DNA of 45,472 bases from Haloferacaceae archaeon. GTDB lineage: Archaea > Halobacteriota > Halobacteria > Halobacteriales > Haloferacaceae. Each line of letters opens with the position of its first letter. Within the stretch, counting starts at the first letter, position 1. The translations under genes were made by a program, and so were the position numbers. The DNA lies in contig JAQCMY010000021.1 of assembly GCA_028274865.1 (NCBI GenBank), positions 1 through 45,472 of the forward strand. The letters are read 5' to 3'. A model generated the notes under the pieces. It had not been told where the DNA came from. It worked only from the letters and a program-made list of their open reading frames with translations, and ran no database searches. This document shows positions 16,273-43,174 of this stretch, piece after piece.

Positions 16273-16321
16273 GACCGAACCGAACGCAACAGCTTAACGC
16301 CTCCCACGCGCCCTGAGAGAC

Positions 16322-16963
16322 GTGTTCGTCCTCGTCAACCTGAAGGCGTACGACGTCGACCCCGTCGCCGTCGCGGAGCACGCGGCTGCCGTCGCCGACA
16401 GTCACGACGCGCGGGTCGCCGTCTCGCCGCAGACCGCGCACCTCGACCGCGTCGCGGCGACCGGCGTCGAGACCTGGGCCCAGCACGCCGCGCCGACCGG
16501 GCACGGCAGCCACACCGGGAGCCAGCACGCGGCTGCCGCCGCCGACGCCGGCGCGGTCGGGACGCTCCTGAACCACTCCGAGCGCCGGCTCCGCCTCGCG
16601 GACGTCGACGACGGCCTCGGCGCCGCCGGGCGCGCCGGCCTCTCGACGGTCGTCTGTGCGAACAACCCGGCACAGGCCGCGGCGGCGGCGAGTCTCGGCC
16701 CGGACGCCGTCGCGGTCGAGCCGCCGGCGCTCATCGGCGGCGACGTCTCCGTCGCGAGCGCCGACCCGGCTGTCGTCGAGGAGTCCGTCGCCGCCGTCGA
16801 GCGGGTCGACCCCGACGTGGCGACCTACTGCGGCGCCGGCGTCTCGACCGGCGACGACGTGGCCGCGGCAGCCGACCTCGGCGCGGAGGGTGTTCTGCTC
16901 GCCAGCGCCGTCGCGAAGGCAGACGACCCGCGCGGCGTCCTCGAGAACCTCGTCACTCGATGA
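16322..16963 (+). CDS. tpiA: Triosephosphate isomerase (archaeal short type)
   Basis: [14 protein letters not shown] and [10 protein letters not shown] are present. The length is 213 aa. The GTG start has a GCTTAAC box about 27 nt upstream. Confidence 0.9.
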
Positions 16964-19900
16964 TCTCCGCGTCCTGACCGTCCCGGGGGTCGCCGGAGGC
17001 GGTTACGGACGACCGGCCGGTGTCGTCCGACGTCCCGGACGAGTCGGCGCCGTCCGTGGTGTCGTCTGACGCCTCGGCTCCTCGGTCCGGCTCGTCGACG
17101 AACTCCGCCTCGTCGACGAACTCGACGTCTTCCTGGCGGAACGCCGGCGTGAGGGCGTCCTCGTCTGCCTCGACGAACTCGACGTCCGGGTCGGTGACGG
17201 CAGCGTCCGGCGCGCCGGCCTCGTCGACGTCGGCGAGCGTCCAGCCGTGGACCGGGTCCTCGACGAACGCCGCCTCGACGGAGCGCAGGACGTCCGCGAG
17301 GTCGTTCTCGTGGAGACGGTCGTCGTACTCCTCGCGCACCAGCGCCGGCAGGGCGTAGGCGTACTTGCCCTTGCCGACGTGGTCGACGAGGCCGGCGCGC
17401 CGCAGCCGGCGAATCCGCCCGTACGCGAGCTCGCGGTCCGCGTTCCCGCCCGCCGCGACGTGGGCCTCGACCGGCGTGACCGGCCCCTCGCTCCGGACGT
17501 GTCGCAGCATCGCCGTCGGCGGCTCGTCCAGCGACGCCACCCGGTCCGCGAGGTCCGCGACGAGCGCCTCGTGGGTGCCGAGGGTCATCCGCGCCGGGCC
17601 GGCAGCGGCGGGGTCGTCGCCGGCTGCCTCGTCCGCTCCGTCGGCACGACCGACAGCAACCGGCTGCTGGTCCGTCCCGGCGGGCCGGTCCCCGGAGCCG
17701 GTCTCGTCCGCCGCCCTGGGTCCCGACGGCTCGGCGGCGTCCGGAGCGTCCGTGTCCGCCCGTTCGGGCCCGGGCCGGTCGGCAGACTCGCCCGTGTCCC
17801 GCTCCGTCGGGGCTGTCCGCTCGCCGCCCGCGGTCGGGGGCGGCCCGCCGTCCCGTGGCGGCTGCCCGTCGGCGTCTCGGGGCGCCGCCGCGTCGGCGCC
17901 GGCGTCCGGCCACTCGCCGGTGCCGTCGAGGTCGACGCCATCGGTGTCGCTCGCGCCGTCGGTCGGCGCCGACCGCCCGGCGTCGCCCGCCGTCTCGTCC
18001 CGGTGTGGCGCGTTCGAGCGGTCGAGCAGCGCCTGCGAGAACCGCTCGGCCATCTGCTCGAGGTTCCGTGCCTCCCCCAGCTCCGCCTCTAACTCCGCGA
18101 TACGGGCCTCCTTGCGCTCCAGCTCCTGCCGGAGGTCCGCGAGTTCGGACTCGCGGCGCTGCTGTTCGTCGGTGATGGCGCGCAGGTCCGAGACGAGGTC
18201 GTCGTCGACGCTCTTCAGCTCCGGTCGCTCGAACTCGTCGAGGCCGGGGGTCGCGCCGGCGTCGAACGTCCGCTTGCGGTGGAACTGGACGCGCCGGATC
18301 GACTCCGACCAGTCGGTCATCAGGAACGCCTCGCCGTCGTCGAGGTCCTCCACCGCCTCCGCGTGCTCCCGGTCGATGATGCGGCGCACGACCTGCGTGT
18401 CGTTGTCCCAGGTCAGACGGTGCCAGCAGAGCCAGTCACACTGGGTGATGTAGTCCTTCTTGACGTTCGCCGGCCGCTGGCTGATGCCGAGGAGCCCGAG
18501 ACCGTGCTTGCGTCCACGCTTGCCGATCTTGACGAGCATCCGCCCCGCGTCCGTCGTGCCGCCGCCCTCCGGAATGTACTCGTGGACCTCCTCGACGAGC
18601 AGGAGGAACGGCTGTTTCAGCTTCTTCTCCTTCGCGAACAGGTGTCGCGCCGTCTCGAAGACGAGTTCGTCGGCGACGGCCTCGTCCAGGTAGCCCGACA
18701 CGTCGAGGACGATCGGGACGTTCTGCTCCAGGGCGAGCGAGGCGAGCTTCTCGGCGTGTTCCGGCGCGACCTGGATGTCGCACTCGTCGTCCGCGCCGGC
18801 GTGGAGCAGTTCGAACTCCTCTTTCAGCCCGTAGTACTCGCCCTCGACGTCGACGATGAGGAGCGGGTAGCCGTCGTCGAGCAGCCGCTCCGCGACGACG
18901 CTGGCCGAGTTGGAGTTGTGGACGAAGACGCCGTTGGCGACGAAGTTGTCGTTGACCGCCACGTCGAGGTCGTACACCGTCCGTTCCGCGTCGAACTCCT
19001 CGACTTCGGCAACCCGCTTCCACTGGACGTCCGACTCACCGAATGCGCGGGCACGACCGCCGATTCCGAGCTCCTCGACGATCCGGTTGTACGTCTCTCG
19101 ACCAGCCTTCTGCTGTCGCGTGAGGTGGTTGACCGATGCGCCGTCGACCCGCCGGTCGCTGTCGCGCGCCGTCCACCCTGCACTCCGGGCCGCGGCGTTG
19201 AGCACCGGGCCGAAGTTCGGGATCGTGTCCTTCGAGTTGTAGCGGTCGCCGTCGGCCCGGGTCCGACACAGCGCGTCGAGCGCCTCGGACTTCGACCCGA
19301 CGCTCAGGTCGACGACGTCGCGGAACCGGTCCAGACAGAACGCGTCGACCCCGAGCCGACGGTACCGACGCCGCTCCCCCTCGTGGCGCGTGAACTTCTC
19401 GCGGACCGTCGTCGAGACGCCGAACCCTCTGAGCAGTTCGCGAAGCCCGTCGACCAGCGGCTCAGACTTCGACATCGCCGTGACGGTCGAGTCACCGACC
19501 GTACCGTCGCCGTCGACGTACCCCGAGAGGAGCCCGGCCCGGAACGATTCGGGCGTGTCGAACGCCCAGTTCGGGATCGACTTCTCCGCCGCGCCTCGAC
19601 CGAACTCCGCCTCGAAGAAGCGGGCGAGCGGCTGGAATCCCTTGTTGCAACTCCGGTCGTCGACGTCGTAGCCCCGGGACCGGAGGAACGCCTTCACTTC
19701 CTCGTCGACGTTCGAGATCTGGATCGTCAGGTGCGAGTCGAACGACCCCTCGGCGAGGTAGAGACCGACCTCCTTGCCGGTCTCGAAGTCGAGAGCGAGG
19801 TGTCTGTCGTCGGTCCGGGGACCGCTCTGTATCACGCCGCCGTCGACGACGAGGTCGTTCGCTCCGTCGTCGACGTAATCGGCGAGGTCGATCTCGGTGG

Positions 19901-20369
19901 TGGACGCCGTGCTGGGGAGTTCGCGGGCGAGCGGCATCCACGTCCCCGCCTCGAGTTCGTCGCCGCGAACCGGGACGATCTCCGTTCCGTCGACCGTGAG
20001 GAAACTGTGGTCCTCCGTCCCGACGAGTTCGGTTCCGTCCTCCAGCGTGACGCGCAGGAGCCGGTCGTCGGTGTGTCGGATCGTCGCCCGAACCTCCCGG
20101 AACTCCTGCTCGAACGTGTGGCGGTTCAGCGAGAGGACGCGGTCGCCCTCCTCGACGGCCTCGATTGGCTTGCGCCCCGACTCGGTGTGGACGGGCGTCC
20201 CCTCGAGGATGCTCTTGCCGCTCCCAGACTTCCCGGTGACGAACCCGCGGCCGGTGAGGAGTTCGACGACCGGGAGCGAGACGCTCGCACCCGGTGCCGT
20301 CCCGTCGCCGCCCGGTCCGTCGCTCACGTCCGCGACGGTTATCGTCCGCGTCGTGGGCCCATCGCTCAT
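16953..20369 (-). CDS. HerA/FtsK-like (DUF87-type) P-loop ATPase with coiled coil, acidic disordered region and C-terminal winged-helix domain; contains an intein
   Basis: Walker A TGKSGSGK|SNS is restored after removing residues 53-485. Walker B is [10 protein letters not shown] and [14 protein letters not shown] follows. The heptad-like segment is [25 protein letters not shown]. The C-terminal segment [21 protein letters not shown] is wHTH-like. Confidence 0.85.
18915..20213 (-). mobile_element. Full-length intein (433 aa) with LAGLIDADG homing-endonuclease domain, inserted in the Walker A motif
   Basis: The N-terminal splice residue is Ser (SILEGTPV, block A). Block B is GTEDHSF (TxxH). 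The LAGLIDADG motifs are [10 protein letters not shown] and [12 protein letters not shown]. The C-terminal blocks are [21 protein letters not shown] followed by +1 Ser. Removing the element recreates GKSGSGKSN. Confidence 0.85.
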
Positions 20370-20432: not shown

Positions 20433-21656
20433 TCAGCCGTCGAACTCCTCCAGCGACGCCTGCCCGCCGGGTCCCGTGCCGTGTGACGGGTCGCTCCCGT
20501 CGCCGGTCCACCCGTCGAGGCTCGACTGCTCGGCGTCCGCGAAGGACAGCTTCGAGAGCCGAACGCCGACCTTGCGGACCGTCGCGTCCGCGAACTCGGA
20601 GAGCAGGTCGAGCGCCGTCTCGCGAACGAGCCCCGGGTCGTCGACGGGGCCGGGGAGCGACCGGGCACGCGTCGAGACGTCGAACGGCGGCTGGACGACC
20701 TTCACGCCGGTGGTGCGGTAGAGCGCGCCCTCCGACCGTGCGCGCTCGGCGACGTCGGCGGCGAGGCCGCGGGCGCGCTCCCGGACCCGCTCGTGGTCGT
20801 CCGTCGGGTCGGCGAACGCCGACTCTCGCGAGAGGCTCTTCGGACGTCCGCGCGGCGTCACGGGCCGGTCGTCGTCACCCCGGGCGCGGTCGTAGAGTGT
20901 GCGCCCGCGCTCGCCGAACCGCTCGCGCAGGACCGTCGGGTCTGCCGCGGCGACGTCGCCGGCCGTCTCGACGCCCAGCTCCGCGAGCGTCGACGCGGTG
21001 ACGGGACCGACGCCGTGGACGACCTCGACGGGGAGCGGAGCGAGAAAGTCGCGCACCGCGCCCGGCGGGACGACGACGAGCCCGTCCGGCTTGTCGTGGT
21101 CGCTCGCCACCTTCGCGGCGCTCATGCTGGGTGCGACGCCGACACTCGCAGGCACCCCTGCCTCGCGCTCGATACGGGACTTGACGTGCCGGGCGTACCC
21201 CTCGGCCAGCCGCCGATCCTCCCCCGGAACCCGGTCCCAGGAGGTGCGGTCGCTCGCGTCGAGGTACGCCTCGTCGACACTCACCTCTCGCACCACGTCG
21301 GCGGCGTCGTGGAGGACGGCCTTTAGCTCCGCCGCGACCTCGCGGTAGAACGCCATGTCGACCGGGAGGTAGACCCCGGTACCGTCGGGGTCGTCTGCGG
21401 ACGCGCGCCGCGGGAGCAGGTCGAGCGCCCGCGAGACGGACTGGGCGCTCTCGACGCCGTACTCGCGTGCCTCGTAGCTGGCGGTGGCGACGGCGCCCGC
21501 CGTCTCGCCCGGCTCGTAGCCCATCCCGACGACGACCGGCTCTCCCGCGAGTTCGGGCCGACGCCGTCGCTCACAGGAGGCGTAGAAGCAGTCCATGTCG
21601 ACGTGGACCACGACCCGCGGGTCGTCGTCCCCGGCGACGGGGAGCCGGCTGCTCAC
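20433..21656 (-). CDS. dinB: Y-family DNA polymerase IV
   Basis: VVHVDMDCFYASCE, ASYEAREYGV, SVDEAYLD and the 407-aa length fit. Confidence 0.9.
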   Translation of the reverse strand: MSSRLPVAGDDDPRVVVHVDMDCFYASCERRRRPELAGEPVVVGMGYEPGETAGAVATASYEAREYGVESAQSVSRALDLLPRRASADDPDGTGVYLPVDMAFYREVAAELKAVLHDAADVVREVSVDEAYLDASDRTSWDRVPGEDRRLAEGYARHVKSRIEREAGVPASVGVAPSMSAAKVASDHDKPDGLVVVPPGAVRDFLAPLPVEVVHGVGPVTASTLAELGVETAGDVAAADPTVLRERFGERGRTLYDRARGDDDRPVTPRGRPKSLSRESAFADPTDDHERVRERARGLAADVAERARSEGALYRTTGVKVVQPPFDVSTRARSLPGPVDDPGLVRETALDLLSEFADATVRKVGVRLSKLSFADAEQSSLDGWTGDGSDPSHGTGPGGQASLEEFDG

Positions 21657-21714: not shown

Positions 21715-22143
21715 CTACTTCAGCCGCTCCTGGAGGAAGGAGGGGTGGGCAGCGGTGACACCGTCGATGTCGAGGACGTCGCGCTGGATGACGTCTCCGA
21801 GCGCGTTGCCGTCGGCGGCGCGCACCTCGGCCATCAGCGTGTGGTCGCCGGAGGAGGAGTAGAGCCGCTCGACGGCGTCGAGTCCCTCCAGTGACCGGGC
21901 CGCGTCGACGTAGCGCTCGCTGGCGACCTCGATACCGACGATCGCGATCGACTGGCCCGAGAGCTTCTTCGGGTCGACCTCGGCGGAGTAGCCGACGATG
22001 ACGCCGTCCTCTTCCAGCCGGCGGATGTACTTCCGGACCGTCGGCTTCGACACACCGGCTCGCTCGGCTATCTCGGCGTAGGAGGCCTGCGCGTCCTCTT
22101 CGAGAACCTCGAGGATGCGCGTCTCGGTCGAAGCCGTTGTCAC
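21715..22143 (-). CDS. Lrp/AsnC family transcriptional regulator
   Basis: The N-terminal HTH is ILEVLEEDAQASYAEIAERAGVSKPTVRKYIRRLEEDGVI, followed by a C-terminal RAM/ACT-like domain. The length is 142 aa. Confidence 0.9.
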   Translation of the reverse strand: MTTASTETRILEVLEEDAQASYAEIAERAGVSKPTVRKYIRRLEEDGVIVGYSAEVDPKKLSGQSIAIVGIEVASERYVDAARSLEGLDAVERLYSSSGDHTLMAEVRAADGNALGDVIQRDVLDIDGVTAAHPSFLQERLK

Positions 22144-22206: not shown

Positions 22207-23145
22207 TCAGCGGTGTTTCGCGAGGAACGCGTCGGCGCTTCGCTCCCACTCGTAGTCCGTGTCGAAGTACCGCTCGGCGAGGGGTTCGTCCGGCATCTCG
22301 CCGATCGCGCGCTTCTCCTGCCCGTAGGAGGGCCGGTCGTCGTCGCGGTAGTAGACGCCGGTCAGCACCTCGCCCTCGTACAGCTTGTCCTCCGTCTCGC
22401 GCATCAGCTCCTGGGCCTCGGCCCGGTCGGTCGGGTCGAACTCGAAGTCCTCGGAGTCGTTTATATCGACGTAGGGGACGTACTGCTTGGCGTCCTTGTT
22501 CCACGTCGGACACTGCGTGAGGAAGTCGATGTGGGCGAACCCGTCGTGTTCGATCGCCTCGACGAGGATGCGCTGGGCCTGGTTCGGGTTGACCGCGGCG
22601 GTCCGGGCGACGAAGGAGGCACCGGAGGTGAGCGCGAGCGACAGGGGCCGGATCGGGTCTTTCGCGCTCCCCGAGGGCTGGGTCTTCGACTTGTGACCCT
22701 TCGGGCTGGTCGGGGACGTCTGTCCCTTCGTCAGCCCGAATATCTCGTTGTTGAACACGATGTAGGTCATGTCGTGGTTCTCCCGGGCGGTGTGCATGAA
22801 GTGGTTCCCGCCGATACCGTAGCCGTCGCCGTCGCCGCCGGCGGCGACCACCTCGACGCCGGGGTTCGCCATCTTGGCGGCCCGGGCCACGGGCAGCGAG
22901 CGCCCGTGGATCGTGTGGAAGCCGTAGCTCTCGAAGTACGAGTTCAGCTTGCCGGAACAGCCGATGCCGGTCACCAGCAGCGTCTCGTCGGGCGTCCGCC
23001 CGACCTCGGGCATCGCACCCTTCAGCGCCTTCAGGACGCCGAAGTCGCCACAGCCCGGACACCACGTCGGCTGGGGCTCCAGCCCGGGGGTGAACTCCTC
23101 GCGGTCGCTCGCTCGCTCCTCGCCGATACCGGTGAATGTGCTCAT
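22207..23145 (-). CDS. porB: 2-oxoacid:ferredoxin oxidoreductase beta subunit (size and context suggest the pyruvate enzyme)
   Basis: TWCPGCGDFG and the TPP-binding region GDGDGYGIGGNH are present. ATG 23145 gives MSTFTGIGEE, typical of the family, and lies 4 nt after the porA TAA. Confidence 0.85.
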   Translation of the reverse strand: MSTFTGIGEERASDREEFTPGLEPQPTWCPGCGDFGVLKALKGAMPEVGRTPDETLLVTGIGCSGKLNSYFESYGFHTIHGRSLPVARAAKMANPGVEVVAAGGDGDGYGIGGNHFMHTARENHDMTYIVFNNEIFGLTKGQTSPTSPKGHKSKTQPSGSAKDPIRPLSLALTSGASFVARTAAVNPNQAQRILVEAIEHDGFAHIDFLTQCPTWNKDAKQYVPYVDINDSEDFEFDPTDRAEAQELMRETEDKLYEGEVLTGVYYRDDDRPSYGQEKRAIGEMPDEPLAERYFDTDYEWERSADAFLAKHR

Positions 23146-23149
23146 TGTG

Positions 23150-25042
23150 TTAGTCACCTGCTGCGGGGACGAAGCGGGTCTCGTTGCCCGGAACCTCCCC
23201 GTCGCCGTCGATGTTCGTCTCGAACCCCTCGACTACCTCGGCCGGCTCGAAGGGGTTGCCGTTGTACTTCAGGAGGCTTGCGAGCTGGTCGTCGCCCGTC
23301 CCGAGCTCCTTCTGGGTCAGCCCGCGGAACTGTGCGGAGGCGTTCATCTCGACGACCAGCGCCTCGTCGACGCCCCGGAGGAACGCCCGCACCTCCTCGA
23401 CCGGGTACGGCATCAGTTCGCCGACGGTCAGCGCCTTCACCGAGTGGCCGGCGTCGTTCAGGCGGTCGACCGCCTCCTCGACCGTACCCTGCTGGCTGCC
23501 GAACGTGAGGACGCCGTGTTCGGCGTCTTCCGGGCCGTACGCGTCGTTCAGCGTGTCGCCGTCGAGGTCGGCGCGGATCGCCCGGAGCTTCTCCGAGCGC
23601 CGGTCGACCTGCGCGACGCGGTTGTCGGGGTCCTCGCTGATGTGTCCTGGCGCGTTGTGCTCGTTGCCGGTGACGAGGTGGCGGCCGCCCTTCTGTCCGG
23701 GGACGGACCGCGGACTGACCCCGTCCTCGACGTCGTGACGGAACCGCTCGAACTTGCCCGAGGCGTCGTGGGGTGCGTCGGCGATCTGGTCCTCTGTCAG
23801 CACCGAGCCGGGGTCGGTGTTGGGCTCGCGGTCGAAGTGGCTCGCCGGGACGTTGACCAGTTCGCCGCCGAGCTTCTGGTCGTACAGCAGAATCGCCGGG
23901 ATCTGGTACTCGTAGGCGACCTGAAACGCCCGCCGTGCGTGGTCGTACGCCTCCGCGACGGTGCCGGGCGCGAACACGACGCGGTTCGAGTCGCCCTGGC
24001 TCGTGTAGAGAACGTGTTCGAGGTCGGCCTGTTCGGGCTTGGTCGGCATCCCCGTCGACGGGCCGGCCCGCATCGCCTCGATGAGGACGACGGGCGTCTC
24101 GGACATCTCCGCGAGCCCGAGCGGCTCCGACATCAGCGCGAACCCGCCGCCGGAAGAGCCGGACATCGACTTCACCCCCATGTGAGAGGCACCGATCGCG
24201 AGCGCCGCGGCGGCGATCTCGTCCTCGACCTGTTCGGAGACGCCGCCCAGCTGCGGCAGGCAGTTGGACATGATCGTGAACACCTCGGTCCACGGCGTCA
24301 TCGGGTAGCCGGCGATGAACCGGCAGCCCTCGTCGATCGCGCCGTAGGCGATCGCGTCGGAGCCCGACAGGAGCACCTGCTCCTCCTCGTGGTCGCCCTC
24401 CGGGACGCGTACGGCGGTCGCGTCGACGTCGAACGCCGACTGGACGTGTTCGTACGCCTCGTCGAAGACGGTGAGGTTCGCGTCGAGGATCTTCTCCGGC
24501 ATCGCGTCCCGCATCATCGACTTGATCGTCTCCGGCTCGATGCCGGTGATGGCGCAGGTGCAGGCCACGCCCGCGGTGTTGCGCATCACCTCCCGACCGT
24601 GTTCGCGGGCCATCGTCCGGAGGTCGACCGGGAAGACGTGCCAGTCGTTCGCCTCGGCGCGTTCGTCGAGGTCGGCGACGGACTCCTCGTCGAGGAGGCC
24701 GGAGTCGTAGACGATGACGCCGCCCTCCCGGAGGTCGTCGAGGTTCTCGGCCAGCGGCTTCGCCTCCTCGTTGCCGTAGTAGGCGCCGTCCCGGGGGTTC
24801 CGGGCGAAGGAGTCACCCAGCGCGAGGAGGAAGTTGTAGCCGTCGCCGCGCGAGCGTACCGGCTCCGACGACGCCCGTACCTCCGTGTACGTGTGTCCGC
24901 CGCGGATGCGCGACGGGTAGTGACGGTGGGTGAACACGTTGAGGCCGGAGCGCATCAGCGCCTTGGCGAAGTTCTGGCTCGTCGAGGCGATGCCGTCGCC
25001 CGACCCACCAGCGACCCGCCAGATGAGTTCGTCGTCTGTCAT
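23150..25042 (-). CDS. porA: 2-oxoacid:ferredoxin oxidoreductase alpha subunit
   Basis: WRVAGGSGDGIASTSQNFAKA and GYPMTPWTE are present. The length is 630 aa and the gene is adjacent to the beta subunit. Confidence 0.88.
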   Translation of the reverse strand: MTDDELIWRVAGGSGDGIASTSQNFAKALMRSGLNVFTHRHYPSRIRGGHTYTEVRASSEPVRSRGDGYNFLLALGDSFARNPRDGAYYGNEEAKPLAENLDDLREGGVIVYDSGLLDEESVADLDERAEANDWHVFPVDLRTMAREHGREVMRNTAGVACTCAITGIEPETIKSMMRDAMPEKILDANLTVFDEAYEHVQSAFDVDATAVRVPEGDHEEEQVLLSGSDAIAYGAIDEGCRFIAGYPMTPWTEVFTIMSNCLPQLGGVSEQVEDEIAAAALAIGASHMGVKSMSGSSGGGFALMSEPLGLAEMSETPVVLIEAMRAGPSTGMPTKPEQADLEHVLYTSQGDSNRVVFAPGTVAEAYDHARRAFQVAYEYQIPAILLYDQKLGGELVNVPASHFDREPNTDPGSVLTEDQIADAPHDASGKFERFRHDVEDGVSPRSVPGQKGGRHLVTGNEHNAPGHISEDPDNRVAQVDRRSEKLRAIRADLDGDTLNDAYGPEDAEHGVLTFGSQQGTVEEAVDRLNDAGHSVKALTVGELMPYPVEEVRAFLRGVDEALVVEMNASAQFRGLTQKELGTGDDQLASLLKYNGNPFEPAEVVEGFETNIDGDGEVPGNETRFVPAAGD

Positions 25043-25197
25043 AGATAAATCGGCCCGTGAGGGCCACCGATATCAGGTTACCGACGCCTCCGTATATGGT
25101 TTGCTGTGCCATCTCGATGATAGATCGTGAACGTGGGCGTCTCGACCGCTCTCGCTGTTCCTCGCGCTCCCGTGTGTGTCGGTAGCGCGGTTCGCGG

Positions 25198-36973: not shown

Positions 36974-37132
36974 CCCCCGTCGTGTGGTGCAGCCGCTCGC
37001 GCAGGACACCCGGCTGTGCGTTCGGCGGCGACGACAGCTCTCGCGGCCTCGAGGCCGGGACCGGCCGTGACGCGGCGAGCGCGGAACCGAGCCGCGGCGG
37101 CGCCGAGCGGACCGCGGAGGGGCACCGCTGAG

Positions 37133-39244
37133 ATGTCGGGGGTCGAACTGACCGTCCGCGCGGCGGAGAAGCGCGACGCGGGGCGGGGTATCGCCCGCCT
37201 CCCGGAGGCGACCCGGTCGACGCTCGGCGTCCTCAGCGGCGACCCCGTCGTCGTCGAGGGCGAGCGCCCGGCGATCGTAAAGTGCTGGCCGGCCCGCACC
37301 GGCGTGCCGGACGGCACGGTCCAGGTCGACGCCGACACGCGGGCGAACGCCGGCGTCAAGGTCGGCGAGACGGCACAGGTGTCGACGACAGGGACGCTCG
37401 CCGCCGCCGACCGTGTCGACCTCGTCCCCGTCGGCGGCGTCGACGTCGACGCCGACGACGACGCCGTCGTCGCCGCCGCGACGGAGGCCGTCCGCGACCG
37501 GCCCGTCCGCGCCGGCCAGACCGTCCGGGTCGAGCGCGTCGACGCGACCGTGCGGGTGCGCGAGACGGAGCCGACGGGCGACGTACGGGTCGGCGACTCG
37601 ACGACCGTGGCCGTCGACCTCGACGCCGAGACGCCGGCGGACGAGTCCGACGACCCGGCGCCGGCGAGCGGAATAACCTACGAGGACATCGGCGGCCTCG
37701 ACGACGAGCTCGACCTCGTCCGCGAGATGGTCGAACTCCCGCTCTCGGAGCCGGAGCTGTTCGCGCGCGTCGGTGTCGAACCGCCGCGGGGCGTCCTCCT
37801 CTACGGCCCGCCGGGCACGGGCAAGACGCTGATCGCGAGGGCCGTCGCGAACGAGGTGGACGCGTCGTTTTTCACCGTGAGCGGCCCGGAGATCGTCTCG
37901 AAGTACAAGGGCGACAGCGAGGAGCGCCTGCGCGAGACGTTCCGGGAGGCCCGCGAGGCGGCGCCGTCGGTGGTGTTCTTCGACGAGATCGACTCCATCG
38001 CCGGGGAACGCGACGGCGACTCGGACGTCGAGAACCGCGTCGTCGGCCAGCTGCTGTCGCTGATGGACGGCCTCGACGACCGGGGCGACGTCGTCGTGGT
38101 CGGCGCCACGAACCGTCTCGACAGCCTCGACCCCGCGCTCCGGCGCGGCGGTCGGTTCGACCGCGAGATCGAGATCGGCGCCCCGAACGAGTCCGGCCGG
38201 CGGGAGATCCTCGCGGTCCACGCCCGTGGCGTGCCGCTCGCCGACGACGTCGATCTCGACGCCGTCGCGGCGCGCACGTACGGGTTCGTCGGCGCGGACC
38301 TCGCGACCCTGCTGAAGGAGGCGGGGATGACCGCGCTCCGGCGCGCCCGTGCCGAGGAGACGCCGACGGCGGAGATCGCGGTGAGGCGACGCGACGTCGA
38401 GTCGGCGCTCGCGAGCGTCGAGCCCAGCGCGATGCGGGAGTACGTCGCCGAGCAGCCGACCGAGGGGTTCGAGGCGGTCGGCGGACTCGACGACCCGAAG
38501 GCCGCGCTCTCGCGCGCCGTCGAGTGGCCGCTCCGGTACGAGCCGCTGTTCGCGGCTGCGGACGCGACGCCGCCGACCGGCGTGTTGCTCCACGGTCCGC
38601 CCGGCACGGGCAAGACCCTGCTGGCGCGGGCGATCGCCGCCGAGGCGGGGGTGAACCTCGTCACCGTCGCCGGCCCCGAACTGCTCGACCGCTACGTCGG
38701 CGAGTCCGAGAAGGCCGTCCGCGAGGTGTTCGAACGGGCCCGACAGGCCGCGCCGTCGGTCGTCCTCCTCGACGAGGTGGACGCGGTCGCGCGGGCCCGG
38801 GGCGGCGGCGAGAGCGGGGTCGGCGAGCGCGTCGTCTCACAGCTCCTGACCGAACTCGACCGTGCCGCGGACAACCCCTCGCTCGCCGTCGTCACGACGA
38901 CGAACCGGCGGGACGCGCTCGACCCCGCCCTGCTCCGCCCCGGTCGACTGGAGACCCACGTCGAGGTCCCGGCGCCGGACCGCGGCGCCAGGCGGGCGAC
39001 GTTCGCCGTCCACACGACGGGGAAGCCGCTGGCCGACGACGTCGACCTCGACGCGCTCGCCCGCGAGACGGCGGGCTACTCCGGCGCCGACGTCGAGGCG
39101 GTCGTGCGCGAGGCCGCGATGGCCGCGATCGAGCGCGTGACCGAGCGCCACGGCGACGCCGCGAACGACCACCCAGACGAGGTGGTCCTGACCGAGGCGG
39201 ACTTCGACGCCGCGCTCCGGTCGGTGCCGGGGTCGCTGGCCTAG
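37133..39244 (+). CDS. cdc48: CDC48/VCP-type AAA+ ATPase (N domain plus two AAA modules)
   Basis: The N domain contains GIARLPEATRSTLGVLSGDPVVVEG. Two Walker A motifs GPPGTGKTL are present, with Walker B FFDEID and LLDEVD, plus second-region-of-homology arginines. Confidence 0.9.
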   Translation: MSGVELTVRAAEKRDAGRGIARLPEATRSTLGVLSGDPVVVEGERPAIVKCWPARTGVPDGTVQVDADTRANAGVKVGETAQVSTTGTLAAADRVDLVPVGGVDVDADDDAVVAAATEAVRDRPVRAGQTVRVERVDATVRVRETEPTGDVRVGDSTTVAVDLDAETPADESDDPAPASGITYEDIGGLDDELDLVREMVELPLSEPELFARVGVEPPRGVLLYGPPGTGKTLIARAVANEVDASFFTVSGPEIVSKYKGDSEERLRETFREAREAAPSVVFFDEIDSIAGERDGDSDVENRVVGQLLSLMDGLDDRGDVVVVGATNRLDSLDPALRRGGRFDREIEIGAPNESGRREILAVHARGVPLADDVDLDAVAARTYGFVGADLATLLKEAGMTALRRARAEETPTAEIAVRRRDVESALASVEPSAMREYVAEQPTEGFEAVGGLDDPKAALSRAVEWPLRYEPLFAAADATPPTGVLLHGPPGTGKTLLARAIAAEAGVNLVTVAGPELLDRYVGESEKAVREVFERARQAAPSVVLLDEVDAVARARGGGESGVGERVVSQLLTELDRAADNPSLAVVTTTNRRDALDPALLRPGRLETHVEVPAPDRGARRATFAVHTTGKPLADDVDLDALARETAGYSGADVEAVVREAAMAAIERVTERHGDAANDHPDEVVLTEADFDAALRSVPGSLA

Positions 39245-42081
39245 TCCCAGAACGACCGGGTGCGGGCGTACTCGCGCTCTCGGTCGAGCAGGTCGCGGTA
39301 GAACTCGTCTTCGTTCCGGCGGAGCTTCCCGATGATCCGTGCCGCGGTCTGTGGCCCGACGCCACGGGCGCGGAGCGCGATCGCCGCCCGCTTGCCGTGG
39401 GCCTGGACGAGGTTGGCGTTCCGGTGTGCCCGCTCGACCAGCGACCGCTGCTCCTCGTCCCGGCTGTTCGACTGCACCGCCGCGAGCGTCTCCTCGTCGT
39501 ACGGCGACAGCGCGGCGACACGGGTCGCGCCACAGTCGGGGCACTCCGGGTCGTCGGGGACGCGTCGAACCTTCGTCCGGCGGGTCCACCCGGTGCAGTG
39601 GAGACAGACCAGCACCACCCCGTCGTCGAGGATGCGCTCGCGGACGGTGTCGACCACGCCCGCGTCGGCGTTCTCTGGGACCAGAAACTCCCGACCGCCG
39701 GAGCGACCGCCGGTTCCGATCGGTGTCGACCCCCGTTCGACGACGACGTCGATCTCGTCGCGCTGGATCCGCCGGAGGAGCGCCGCCGCGCCGTCGACGT
39801 CGAGGTCGTCGTGGAACACCTGTCGGACGGCCTCGTCGAACACCGGCGTGTCCTCCAGGGCGGCCATCAGCCGGTCGGCGCCCATCCGGTCGCCCCGGTC
39901 CCGGTCCAGCCGGCCGAACGTCGTCGCGACGTCGACGAGCGCGAACTTCAGCGCGTCCGAGCGCTTCAGGGCGAGTTCGAGGAGCGCCGCGACGTGGTCC
40001 GGGTCGGTCTCTCGAAGCACCTCGACGACAGCCGGCGGGCCGACGCCGCGTGGCACCTCCAGTTCGACGCGGTACGGGTCGACCTCCAGCCCGACCGACG
40101 AGCCGGTTCGCTGGCCGAGGAGCGCCGCGACGAGCCGGCCGAGAGACTCGTTCACTCGGTGGCCAAACGGCGCGTTCAACACCACCTCGCGGCCCCGCCC
40201 CTCGACGACGAGCCGGTCGGCGGTCGGAACCGCGTGGTCGGCCTCGACCTGGCGCTCGACCCGTTCTAGCCCGGCGGCGAGGGTGCGCTCGTCCGCCGGA
40301 AACTCGGCTGCCGTCTCCGCGGCGACCGTAGAGCTGTCGGCATCGGGCGCGCGGAGGCGGTCCGCGGCGCGTTCACGAACCGTGCCGACGTCGTTCGCCA
40401 CCGCCGCGGGGACGGGAATCTCCCGCCCGACCCACGACGGCACCTCGCCGGCGGGGTCTCCGACGGGCGAGACCTCGACGCGCTCCTCCTCCTCGTCGAC
40501 GTTCGCGACCCGCCACATCCGTCCGCCGTGGACGAACGTCGACCCCGGCTCCGCGAAGTTGACGACGAACCGCTCGTCGAGGCTCCCGACGTGAGACTGC
40601 GAGGAGACGTCGTACACCCCGAACGTCGTCTCGTCGGGGATCATCGACAGGTTGGCGTAGAAGTACTGCCAGGTTCCGCCGGACGTCTCCAGCCGGTCGG
40701 TCTCCTCCTCCAGCCACAGCACCCGGTTGCCGGACAGTTCGCGGACCACCTGCCGGAACGCCTCCGCGTCGAGGTCGCGGAACGGGTACGCCCGACACAC
40801 CACCTCGTAGGCACGGCGGGCGCTCACCTCGCCCTCGTCCATCACCAGCCCCGCGACCTGGTTCGCGACGACGTCGAGGCTCCCCTCGTGGATTGCCGCG
40901 GGTTCGACCGCGCCGTCGAGCGCCCGTCGGGCGATCGCGAGCGCCTCCAGCGTGTCGTCGGCACCGCTCGTGACGACCGTCCCCTCCGAGACGCGGTCGC
41001 GGCGGTGGCCCGCACGGCCGACGCGCTGGAGCAGTCGGGCCACCTCGCGGGGGCTGTTGTACTGGACGACGTGGTCGACCCGCCCGACGTCGATGCCGAG
41101 CTCCATCGACGAGGTACAGACGAGCCCGTCGAGTTCGCCCGACTTGAACGCCGTCTCGGCCTCCAGGCGCGCGTCGCGCGAGAGCGACCCGTGGTGGACG
41201 CCGATCGGCTCGTCGAGCGCTGTGAACCGCGCCGCCAGCGCCTCTGCCGTCGACCGGGTGTTGACGAAGACGAGCGTCGACTCGTTCTCGCGGACGGCGT
41301 CGCGTATCGCCCGGACGTGTGCCGCGAGTTCGGGGTCGGTCGCGAGCTCGCCGGCCAGCCGCTCGTCCTCGGCGGTCACCTCGGGCGCGACGACGTCGAC
41401 GGCGAACCGCGAGCCGGCGTCGACCTCGACGACCGCACAGCCCCGCGCGCCGGTGAGGAACTGCCCGACCTCGTCGGGGTCGCCGACCGTCGCGGAGAGG
41501 CCGACGCGCTGGACCGGACCGGCGACCTCGCGCAGGCGCTCGAGGCCGACGGCCAGCTGTGCGCCGCGCTTCGAGGCCGCGAGCTCGTGGACCTCGTCGA
41601 CGACGACGTGGGCGACGTCCGCGAGCGCGCGCCGGAGCTTCGAGCCGGTGAGCATCGCCTGGAGCGTCTCCGGCGTCGTGACGAGGACGTCCGGCGGGTC
41701 GTCGGCCTGCTTCGACCGCTGGTAGTCCGAGGTGTCGCCGTGCCGGACGTCGACCGCGAGGTCGAGTTCCTCACCCCACCAGTCCAGGCGCTCGCGCATG
41801 TCGCGGTTGAGCGCGCGGAGCGGCGTGACGTACAGGACGCTGATCCCGAAGCGGCTGTCTGCCTCGTCGACGGCGGAGAGGACGGGTAGCATCGCCGTCT
41901 CGGTCTTGCCCGTGCCCGTCGGCGCGACGACCAGGGCGTTCCGACCGCCGGCGATCGGCGGGATCGCCCGGCGCTGTGGCTCGGTCGGGGTGGAGAATCC
42001 CCGCTCCGAGAGCGCCGCGCGGACGCCCGGATTCAGGTGGGTGAAGGCGTCTGCCCCGGTCAGTCGCTCGCCGTCTGCCAT
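39241..42081 (-). CDS. lhr: Lhr-family (large helicase related) DEAD/DEAH-box helicase
   Basis: PTEPQRRAIP, VVAPTGTGKTE and the DEVH box (VVDEVHEL) are present. C-terminal Lhr-type domains follow, with a Cys4 cluster CLHC...CPDC. ATG 42081 gives 946 aa. Confidence 0.9.
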   Translation of the reverse strand: MADGERLTGADAFTHLNPGVRAALSERGFSTPTEPQRRAIPPIAGGRNALVVAPTGTGKTETAMLPVLSAVDEADSRFGISVLYVTPLRALNRDMRERLDWWGEELDLAVDVRHGDTSDYQRSKQADDPPDVLVTTPETLQAMLTGSKLRRALADVAHVVVDEVHELAASKRGAQLAVGLERLREVAGPVQRVGLSATVGDPDEVGQFLTGARGCAVVEVDAGSRFAVDVVAPEVTAEDERLAGELATDPELAAHVRAIRDAVRENESTLVFVNTRSTAEALAARFTALDEPIGVHHGSLSRDARLEAETAFKSGELDGLVCTSSMELGIDVGRVDHVVQYNSPREVARLLQRVGRAGHRRDRVSEGTVVTSGADDTLEALAIARRALDGAVEPAAIHEGSLDVVANQVAGLVMDEGEVSARRAYEVVCRAYPFRDLDAEAFRQVVRELSGNRVLWLEEETDRLETSGGTWQYFYANLSMIPDETTFGVYDVSSQSHVGSLDERFVVNFAEPGSTFVHGGRMWRVANVDEEEERVEVSPVGDPAGEVPSWVGREIPVPAAVANDVGTVRERAADRLRAPDADSSTVAAETAAEFPADERTLAAGLERVERQVEADHAVPTADRLVVEGRGREVVLNAPFGHRVNESLGRLVAALLGQRTGSSVGLEVDPYRVELEVPRGVGPPAVVEVLRETDPDHVAALLELALKRSDALKFALVDVATTFGRLDRDRGDRMGADRLMAALEDTPVFDEAVRQVFHDDLDVDGAAALLRRIQRDEIDVVVERGSTPIGTGGRSGGREFLVPENADAGVVDTVRERILDDGVVLVCLHCTGWTRRTKVRRVPDDPECPDCGATRVAALSPYDEETLAAVQSNSRDEEQRSLVERAHRNANLVQAHGKRAAIALRARGVGPQTAARIIGKLRRNEDEFYRDLLDREREYARTRSFWD

Positions 42082-42188
42082 CGAACGGACGTTCGTGACG
42101 GCGGCCCTTGAGACGTGTGTTCGGCGCCGTGGGCCCGAACGTTGAGGTGGCTGCCGGTCGCACGACCGGCGTGAACCACACCCTGTTG

Positions 42189-42425
42189 ATGTGGGGCTCA
42201 CTCGCCGTCTTCGGGGCGCTCGCGGCCGGCGAAGCGGTGCTCGCGGTCCGTGCCGCCCCGGGTGTCCCGGTCGTCGAGGCAGCCGCGGCGTTCGCCGCCT
42301 TCCTCGTCCTCGGAGGGGCACTGATGGCGCTCCGTGACCCCGGGACGTTCGAGCCGCCGGCGCCGTGGGTCGCCTACGTCGCCGCCGCGAGCACCGTCGT
42401 CTACGCCGTCTCTGCCGTCGTCTAG
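42189..42425 (+). CDS. Small hydrophobic protein (78 aa, about 3 TM), opposite strand between rpe and lhr
   Basis: By my count about 70 of 79 codons end in G/C, which is the coding signature of this genome. There are three hydrophobic stretches. The stop shares a CTAG with the rpe stop. I know of no homolog. Confidence 0.45.
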   Translation: MWGSLAVFGALAAGEAVLAVRAAPGVPVVEAAAAFAAFLVLGGALMALRDPGTFEPPAPWVAYVAAASTVVYAVSAVV

Positions 42426-43174
42426 ACGCGGCGGTAGTCGCCGAGACGCGTTCCGTCGAGCAGGTAGACCTCGCCGTCGGCGAGAGCGTCGGGGAGGAAC
42501 GGCGCGAGAAACGCCTCGGCCTCGACGTTCACCCGCGTCCCGCCGGACCGGCCGTTGAACGCCGGGACGACGACGAGTTCCGGGTCGGAGGCTGGCCACG
42601 CGACGTCGCCGTCGTCGGCGAACGGGCCGCTTTGGAGCCGGCCACGGAGCCACGCGCGCTCGGAGCGCGCGCCGCCGACGGCGTCCTCGAGCCGGACCCG
42701 CGGGTGTTCGTGGCCGACGACGACCGACTCGGCGCCGAGCACAGCCGGCGCCGGCCAGGTGTGACCGTGGGCGAACCCGACCGGTCCGGCGCGCCACCCC
42801 GTCGGGTCGCGCACGTCGACGGGGCGGTCGGCGAGCGCCTCGGCGACTCCCGCGTCGTGGTTGCCGGGGACGAGCGTCACCGCCGCGCGGTCGAGCGCCG
42901 CGTCGACGAGTGCGCGGAGCTCCGCCGTCTCGGCGCCCGACGGGTCGCCGATGCGGTGCGCGAGGTCGCCGACGACGACGAGACGGTCGGCGTCGGTGCG
43001 GTCGAGGAGCGAACAGAGCCGGTCCCGCCGGGCGTCGGCGGCGGAGTCGAGCTCCACGCCGCGCTCGTAGCGCAGGCCGGCCTCGATGCCGGCGTGGACG
43101 TCCGCGACGACGAGGGCGCGCTCTCCGTCGAGGTCGGCCGTCGCCGCCGGTTCGCCCGGCACCGGGTCGATCAA
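42422..43174 (-). CDS. rpe: Calcineurin-like metallophosphoesterase, RPA-associated (Rpe-like)
   Basis: VVADVHAG, VVVGDLAH, PGNHD and GHEH motifs are present. A TTG start at 43174 overlaps the rpap1 TGA (TTGA). Alternative starts are GTG 43162 or 43210. Confidence 0.8.
   Translation of the reverse strand: MIDPVPGEPAATADLDGERALVVADVHAGIEAGLRYERGVELDSAADARRDRLCSLLDRTDADRLVVVGDLAHRIGDPSGAETAELRALVDAALDRAAVTLVPGNHDAGVAEALADRPVDVRDPTGWRAGPVGFAHGHTWPAPAVLGAESVVVGHEHPRVRLEDAVGGARSERAWLRGRLQSGPFADDGDVAWPASDPELVVVPAFNGRSGGTRVNVEAEAFLAPFLPDALADGEVYLLDGTRLGDYRRV

Follow-up and report, generated by a model that had tools for sequence, protein, structure and literature searches.

What is a segment of 433 residues doing inside the nucleotide-binding loop of an ATPase, is it able to leave the protein, and can it still pass from one allele to another? 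The question is raised by a stretch of 45,472 nt from a Haloferacaceae archaeon (GenBank assembly GCA_028274865.1, contig JAQCMY010000021.1), referred to below in its full length as the window, in which a gene for an ATPase of the HerA superfamily carries a long in-frame insertion in its Walker A motif. A first-pass annotation of this DNA had read the insertion as a LAGLIDADG intein placed between the Walker A lysine and the serine that follows it. From the profile matches, homologues and substitution patterns presented here, it may be concluded with high confidence that the segment is a bona fide and apparently intact class-1 intein with a two-motif LAGLIDADG endonuclease, situated at the Lys/Ser step of Walker A (here and below, a slash marks the insertion point). 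Its competence in splicing is considered very likely, and its present-day homing activity likely.

The inserted segment and its host ATPase

The segment is recognized above the cut-off by the Pfam model Intein_splicing (PF14890, 9.4e-24) and is also matched by LAGLIDADG_3 (PF14528, 1.7e-13). The top NCBIfam match is the model of the intein-containing RpoA'' (PRK14898, 1e-53), which covers intein residues 25-433; the C-terminal intein model TIGR01443 scores above its cut-off and the N-terminal one, TIGR01445, slightly below it (23.0 bits vs a cut-off of 24.5). Solved inteins matched by sequence are 2cw7, 6rpq and 1mi8. The gene is laid out in the window as follows.

16953..20369, minus strand: precursor open reading frame of 1138 aa (end coordinate including the stop codon), a HerA-superfamily/DUF87 ATPase split by the intein
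20214..20369, minus strand: N-extein, 52 aa, ending within Walker A (GKSGSGK)
18915..20213, minus strand: intein, 433 aa (1299 bp), precursor aa 53-485, from Ser1 to His432-Asn433
19914..20213, minus strand: N-terminal splicing (HINT) region, intein aa 1-100
20190..20213, minus strand: block A, including Ser1
19995..20021, minus strand: block B, GTEDHSFLT, with T66 to H69
19032..19913, minus strand: endonuclease insert, intein aa 101-394, which the mini-inteins P0129 and P0130 lack
19737..19769, minus strand: LAGLIDADG motif 1, LYLAEGSF, intein aa 149-159, with the catalytic Glu155
19497..19532, minus strand: LAGLIDADG motif 2, GYVDGDGT, intein aa 228-239, with the catalytic Asp
18915..19031, minus strand: C-terminal splicing region, intein aa 395-433
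18936..18980, minus strand: block F, VYDLDV..NDNFVA
18915..18935, minus strand: block G, NGVFVHN
16953..18914, minus strand: C-extein, 653 aa, beginning with SNSASVV
18912..18914, minus strand: Ser+1, which is the Walker A serine
18576..18611, minus strand: Walker B (LLVEEVHE), in the C-extein
18462..18488, minus strand: SQRP motif, in the C-extein
about 17346..17513, minus strand: WH_Halo-like region, in the C-extein
20214..20225 and 18903..18914 (feature 18903..20225), minus strand: junction-proximal extein DNA, 12 nt per side

The segment starts with SILEGTPV and ends with GVFVHN, after which the C-extein resumes with SNSASVV. The set of splicing determinants is complete and includes Ser1, the block B residues T66-E-D-H69, block F (VYDLDV..NDNFVA), the H432-N433 pair and Ser+1; the same residues are conserved in 27 of 27 full-size relatives. 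Both LAGLIDADG motifs end in an acidic residue, namely Glu in LYLAEGSF and Asp in GYVDGDGT. On all these points the first-pass annotation was accurate. Its coordinates (open reading frame 16953..20369, segment 18915..20213), the length of 433 aa and every residue quoted there are exact; its assignment to the LAGLIDADG-type inteins is borne out by the Pfam and NCBIfam matches and by 2cw7; the determinants that it had pointed out (Ser1, block B with TEDH, the terminal HN and Ser+1) are all present; and the acidic residues of LAEG and DGDG, which it had noted as retained, are conserved in most relatives as well.

The intein separates the Walker A Lys from the next Ser, and its excision in silico gives the P-loop GKSGSGKSN. 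While the intein is present, the match of the host to the central domain of HerA (PF01935, DUF87) stays below the cut-off (3.7e-4); deleting the intein in silico takes the match above it (2.5e-10). The rebuilt loop aligns with TGAGKSN of the solved HerA hexamers (PDB 4d2i, 9x1l and 8xau), and Walker B (LLVEEVHE) and the SQRP motif align with them too, in agreement with the earlier statement that excision restores a contiguous P-loop. These hexamers thus have Walker A, Walker B and SQRP in common with the spliced host, which passes PF01935, and differ from it in their N-terminal HAS barrel, absent in the host, and in the C-terminus, which in the host runs from a coiled coil through an acidic linker to WH_Halo (PF26491), a haloarchaeal domain.

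The host had been called HerA/FtsK-like, and this holds for its membership of the HerA superfamily (DUF87) and does not hold for HerA itself. Full-length HerA models gave 40-52 bits against equivalog cut-offs of 800-970 (NF040819: 52 vs 970, about 100 residues aligned), and there is no room for the N-terminal HAS barrel, because Walker A begins at residue 45. Identification of the host as true HerA was ruled out on these two grounds. By its sequence, the protein is best described as a haloarchaea-specific ATPase of the HerA superfamily (PF01935/DUF87) and not HerA proper. Its homologue in H. volcanii (P0055) is 73% identical to it; according to a review, HerA/NurA are absent from H. volcanii (PMC7776575). 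The dN/dS ratio (that of nonsynonymous to synonymous substitution rates) of the exteins in occupied alleles is 0.28 for the host ATPase domain, a sign of purifying selection and thereby indirect evidence for excision of the intein and ligation of the exteins; the host gene would have to be functional after excision.

The linker of the C-extein (window 17000..18400) is a very acidic, low-complexity region of about 200 aa, rich in Pro, Ala, Asp and Gly, with a guanine-plus-cytosine (GC) content of up to 0.81. It is situated between the coiled coil and WH_Halo, and its length is highly variable among homologues, whose C-exteins range from 391 to 770 aa.

The gene lies among chromosomal housekeeping genes. 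Its 3' end and that of the convergent gene for triose-phosphate isomerase (16298..16963, plus strand) overlap by 11 nt (16953..16963). The neighbours include dinB (20433..21656), an Lrp/AsnC regulator (21715..22143) and a 2-oxoacid:ferredoxin oxidoreductase (22207..25072), and further away CDC48 (36974..39244) and the Lhr helicase (39241..42528) are found. No intein domain was detected in the neighbours covered by the Pfam scan, outside of which lay the beta subunit of the oxidoreductase (22207..23157).

Occupied, empty and degenerate alleles

The first-pass annotation had suggested a search for empty and occupied alleles, and both were found in abundance. None of the 120 best homologues of the spliced ATPase domain is interrupted; they have about 560-615 aa and belong to Haloferax, Halogeometricum, Halobellus, Halorubrum, Halobaculum, Halapricum and other genera. 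A second search, with a seed from another lineage, gave 108 more homologues, all of them (108/108) empty, so that 228 homologues without the 433 residues and with a contiguous P-loop are available in total.

The most informative empty allele belongs to the uncultured archaeon A07HB70, whose scaffold KI543177 is collinear with the window for about 20 kb, with a nucleotide identity of about 95.5%. The host homologue of this archaeon (P0005) lacks exactly the 1299 bp of the intein, with the alignment breaking at window positions 20214 and 18917. When the flanks of the window are fused, they align with A07HB70 codon for codon across GKSGSGK-SN(S/T)ASVV; the empty site itself reads GGGAAGTCGGGGAGCGGAAAG before and TCGAACACTGCGAGCGTCGTC after the insertion point. 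Metagenome contigs that skip the intein exist too. One of them (X3) skips 1317 nt and adds 18, a net difference of 1299; they were collected at a 90% identity threshold, at which assignment to the same species is impossible.

The intein-free host gene of A07HB70 (L001:10001-12118) is called as two open reading frames of 284 and 296 aa with an apparent frameshift within the acidic linker region, whereas the copy in the window is a single intact frame. The same scaffold contains a gap of 1293 N (L001 7758-9050), which truncates dinB and hides the Lrp/AsnC regulator and the beta subunit of the oxidoreductase.

Occupied alleles were sought in one genome per GTDB species, in metagenomes and in a protein database. 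The same site is occupied in 19 halobacterial GTDB species genomes, 9 metagenome contigs and 10 further protein database entries; the same-site intein is present in at least 29 other haloarchaeal sequences. The insertion codon is identical in every member of the family, GKSGxGK/S[IV]L...FVHN/SN. In databases the relatives are labelled 'LAGLIDADG family homing endonuclease' or 'intein/homing endonuclease'.

The members of this family differ in the state of their endonuclease. Both catalytic acids (LAEG, DGDG) are kept in 16 of the 18 full-size genome copies analysed, including that of the window. They are replaced in the full-size copies L019, L020 (A07HR60), L029, L030 and the frameshifted P0127, and in L024 the Glu of motif 1 is replaced by Lys. 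Frameshifts near the 3' end occur in L016 and L018. Splicing blocks are all that remains in two mini-inteins, 174 and 163 aa long, one from Halalkaliarchaeum sp. AArc-CO (P0129) and the other P0130.

The copies L019, L020, L029, L030 and P0127 form a divergent branch with lengths of 436-453 aa and 40-57% identity to the intein of the window. In this branch the acids of both motifs have been lost, and the reading frame and all splicing residues have been kept; its members are endonuclease-dead inteins heading toward mini-inteins. Intact, degenerate, mini and empty forms taken together are all the stages expected of a homing cycle.

Selection on the intein was estimated as the median pairwise dN/dS over 18 full-size copies, all of them open and down to 57% identical. 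The values are 0.14 for the N-terminal splicing region, 0.18 for the C-terminal one and about 0.27 for the endonuclease insert (0.27 for residues 101-340, comprising the linker and endonuclease, and 0.26 for residues 341-394). The ratio of the endonuclease part is of the same order as that of the host ATPase domain. By this measure the endonuclease region is under purifying selection, and in our opinion this is the chief argument that the endonuclease is, or very recently was, functional.

The composition of the element does not set it apart. By eye, it had been described as using more A/T-ending codons and more Lys and Arg than the host. The GC content at third codon positions is indeed lower in the intein than in the adjoining ATPase extein (0.889 vs 0.94, p=0.02), and to this extent the remark on codons holds weakly, but the value is ordinary for the window, whose other genes have a mean of 0.896 (standard deviation 0.041) and where 42% of 433-codon stretches elsewhere are equally low. 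As to amino acids, the excess of Arg is real (9.9% vs 7.7%) and that of Lys is not, the intein and the whole extein having 2.5% each. The isoelectric point of the intein (4.8 vs 4.3-4.6) is still acidic. The element is fully adapted to its halophilic high-GC host, and the idea of a foreign composition was rejected, the third-position GC content and the isoelectric point both lying inside the host range.

Possible movement, descent and the junction with the P-loop

The window and A07HB70 present an occupied and an empty allele in genomes that are about 95.5% identical, and their junctions are unusually different. Six differences lie within 12 nt of the junction (at -12, -3, +3, +7, +9 and +12), with no others until -48 and +93. 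Six or more mismatches in 25 nt would occur with a probability of about 1e-4 at the 3% divergence of the gene itself and of about 1e-3 at 4.5%. In the 30 nt of the junction, the window is 80% identical to A07HB70, compared with 97% in the whole gene; with the occupied allele L002 it shares 93% in the junction and only 88% in the whole gene. Because the junction matches L002 better than A07HB70, the bases adjacent to the intein seem to share the history of the intein and not that of the genome. This DNA is a probable co-conversion tract or a remnant of the homing site. The discordant tract extends for less than about 60 bp to one side and less than about 90 bp to the other; a gain of the intein in the lineage of the window and its loss in that of A07HB70 are both compatible with it.

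Two further occupied alleles from two species (L008:3001-4296 and L009:3001-4296) have inteins identical across all of about 1300 nt, while the extein flanks are 88-95% identical and the downstream DNA is 83-85% identical; the upstream genes differ and are not syntenic. This looks like a very recent transfer.

On these data, the following life cycle of the element can be proposed. The 1138-aa precursor would be translated with a broken P-loop. Ser1 would perform an N-O acyl shift, Ser+1, i.e., the serine of Walker A, would attack the resulting ester, and Asn433 would cyclise with the assistance of His432, giving a 705-aa ATPase with the intact GKSGSGKS loop and the free 433-aa intein. The endonuclease of the free intein would be expected to cut the uninterrupted P-loop DNA of intein-free alleles that reach the cell by haloarchaeal mating or recombination, for example. 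Repair off the occupied allele would then copy the intein together with a few flanking bases into the empty one, and the element would persist by cycling through invasion, decay of the endonuclease, shrinkage to a mini-intein and loss. What the sequences show directly is the anatomy of the element, its exact presence or absence, its spread through the family and the pattern of selection; the splicing chemistry, endonuclease activity and endonuclease target in this scheme are inferred.

Several points weigh against a functional, mobile intein. Block F has Asp (NDNF) where many inteins have His (HNF), although this is not disqualifying because PI-PkoII, an intein of solved structure, has Glu there. 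An AlphaFold2 model of the intein, built on three aligned sequences, reached a mean pLDDT of 37, too low for it to serve as a check of the fold. The composition, being fully ameliorated, does not suggest that the element came recently from a distant donor. The identity of the L008 and L009 inteins could result from a chimeric graph path, both belonging to one co-assembly (SRP185896_co2). Finally, the identities of inteins and of their exteins rise together (Spearman 0.57), and the nearest intein, that of L002 (87% aa identity), has diverged about as much as the extein around it (92% aa); with such correlated divergences, much of the history is compatible with vertical descent and occasional loss rather than frequent homing. 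These divergences, together with the ameliorated composition, the clearly dead endonucleases of several relatives and the two mini-inteins, favour the view that the intein splices, has an inactive endonuclease and is a vertical passenger, its absences being due to replacement by intein-free alleles via ordinary homologous recombination. We regard this as rather unlikely: a dN/dS of about 0.27 in the endonuclease, with 18 copies free of stop codons even where identity drops to 57%, would hardly be expected of a non-functional region, the catalytic Glu and Asp have been retained in the window and in 16/18 genome copies, the junction-proximal bases group with the occupied L002 and not with the nearest genomic relative, and the inteins of L008 and L009 are identical. 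An error of assembly or annotation, or a HINT-domain insertion that is not an intein and stays in the protein, is hardly credible at all. The window probably comes from a metagenome-derived genome, and in the relative A07HB70 a frameshift breaks up the host gene, but an independent metagenome contig of 2430 nt from another public run covers the full intein and both junctions with 9 mismatches, so that the occupied allele is not an assembly artefact, and the insertion is found at the identical codon in 28 other loci. As for an insertion left in place, all splicing residues are present, and the unspliced product would carry 433 aa in the Walker A motif of a gene under purifying selection.

Occupied alleles differ from empty ones in the P-loop residues beside the junction. 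At position -3, Gly or Ala is found in 14/27 occupied vs 8/228 empty alleles, and Ser occupies this position in 220/228 empty ones (Fisher p=1e-10, phylogenetically uncorrected). At position +3, Ser is present in 18/27 occupied vs 27/228 empty alleles, with Thr in 201/228 empty ones (Fisher p=2e-9, likewise uncorrected for phylogeny). The occupied allele of Halorientalis (L017) has GKSGGGK, whereas its four closest extein homologues (83-89% identity) are all empty and have GKSGSGK; Halegenticoccus soli is occupied and has Gly, H. tardaugens is empty and has Ser. Hitch-hiking of donor flanks by co-conversion seems to be the simplest explanation of these differences, and the alternative is that the junction has adapted for splicing.

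On a further-reaching reading, the intein and the P-loop are co-adapted, which could mean that the loop is tuned for splicing and that splicing gates the assembly of active ATPase conditionally, for example, by salt. This reading is quite improbable in our opinion; were it correct, the element would have a role beyond that of a neutral parasite. A shade less probable still is co-option of the intein as a conditional switch, in which the completion of the P-loop depends on salt, redox or another signal and the flanking residues have become adapted. Salt-dependent splicing has reportedly been observed in a haloarchaeal intein. No position of the host is more critical to function than the one interrupted here, so that the precursor would be unable to bind ATP, occupied alleles carry the unusual residues at -3 and +3, and the clustering of inteins in P-loops is treated in the literature as possibly functional (PMC4760082). 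Nevertheless, most haloarchaea do without the intein, as shown by the 228 empty homologues, and so does the relative with 95.5% identity; the preference for P-loops is explained by selfish homing to conserved sites, and hitch-hiking by co-conversion accounts equally well for the differences in the flanks. A splicing intein with a functional or recently functional endonuclease is preferred by us to a regulatory element.

Relation to known inteins

When 1.84 billion representative proteins were searched with the intein, the family at the same site came out on top, with 189-584 bits for full-size forms, followed by matches of 180 bits or less and about 30% identity. The first other hosts were RNA polymerase A''/Rpb1 and MCM. 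A recent ectopic origin from another intein allele was considered and rejected, since the scores fall from above 250 to below 180 bits, at about 30% identity.

Among known inteins, MCM-a (cdc21-a), listed for Halobacteria (PMC4071816) and with a P-loop site that has been described (PMC4760082), is the closest analogue. It occupies the same Lys/Ser site of Walker A, GDPGTAK/S...HN/SQLL (P0138, P0142) compared with GKSGSGK/S...HN/SNS here, and shares Ser1, Ser+1 and the LAGLIDADG endonuclease (E ~1e-40, 28-33% identity). Its host is different, the AAA+ protein MCM and not an ATPase of the HerA/FtsK superfamily, and with an identity of about 30% nothing points to a recent jump from one site to the other. 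The rpolA inteins provide the best profile match (PRK14898) and, with those of Rpb1/A'' (P0134, P0144, P0153), the top non-allelic matches of the protein search; they differ in the host, in the site (...HN/TLNS) and by their identity of about 30%. The nearest solved structure by sequence is PI-PkoII (PI-TkoII), the Pol intein endonuclease of Thermococcus kodakarensis (PDB 2cw7, 3.5e-15). It aligns in three segments, namely the N-terminal splicing region, LAGLIDADG motif 2 and the C-terminal splicing region, and likewise has an acidic residue and not His in block F. However, it is 537 aa long, resides in a family B DNA polymerase of a hyperthermophile and can be aligned only in part.

Soucy et al. 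(2014) reported 24 haloarchaeal intein alleles in 13 genes, cdc21, polB, pol-II, dtd, gyrB, helicase-b, ligase, rfc, rir1, rpolA, udp, topA and top6B (PMC4071816). A HerA/DUF87 ATPase is absent from the list in Table 1 of that paper, to which the comparison was confined, InBase and the supplement of Novikova et al. lying outside it. The literature search found no paper combining an intein with DUF87 and none describing an intein in HerA.

The architecture of the element and the logic of its site are those of a well-known class, the P-loop inteins (PMC4760082). The case described here reinforces the known preference of inteins for the P-loop motif and does not change any concept; it adds a haloarchaea-specific HerA-like ATPase to the P-loop ATPases invaded at Lys/Ser. 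The element is a candidate for a new salt-adapted LAGLIDADG enzyme and splicing domain. Since occupied, empty, degenerate and mini alleles coexist, and the site is empty in a genome with 95.5% identity, it may serve as a handy natural marker for studies of gene flow and homing dynamics in hypersaline communities.

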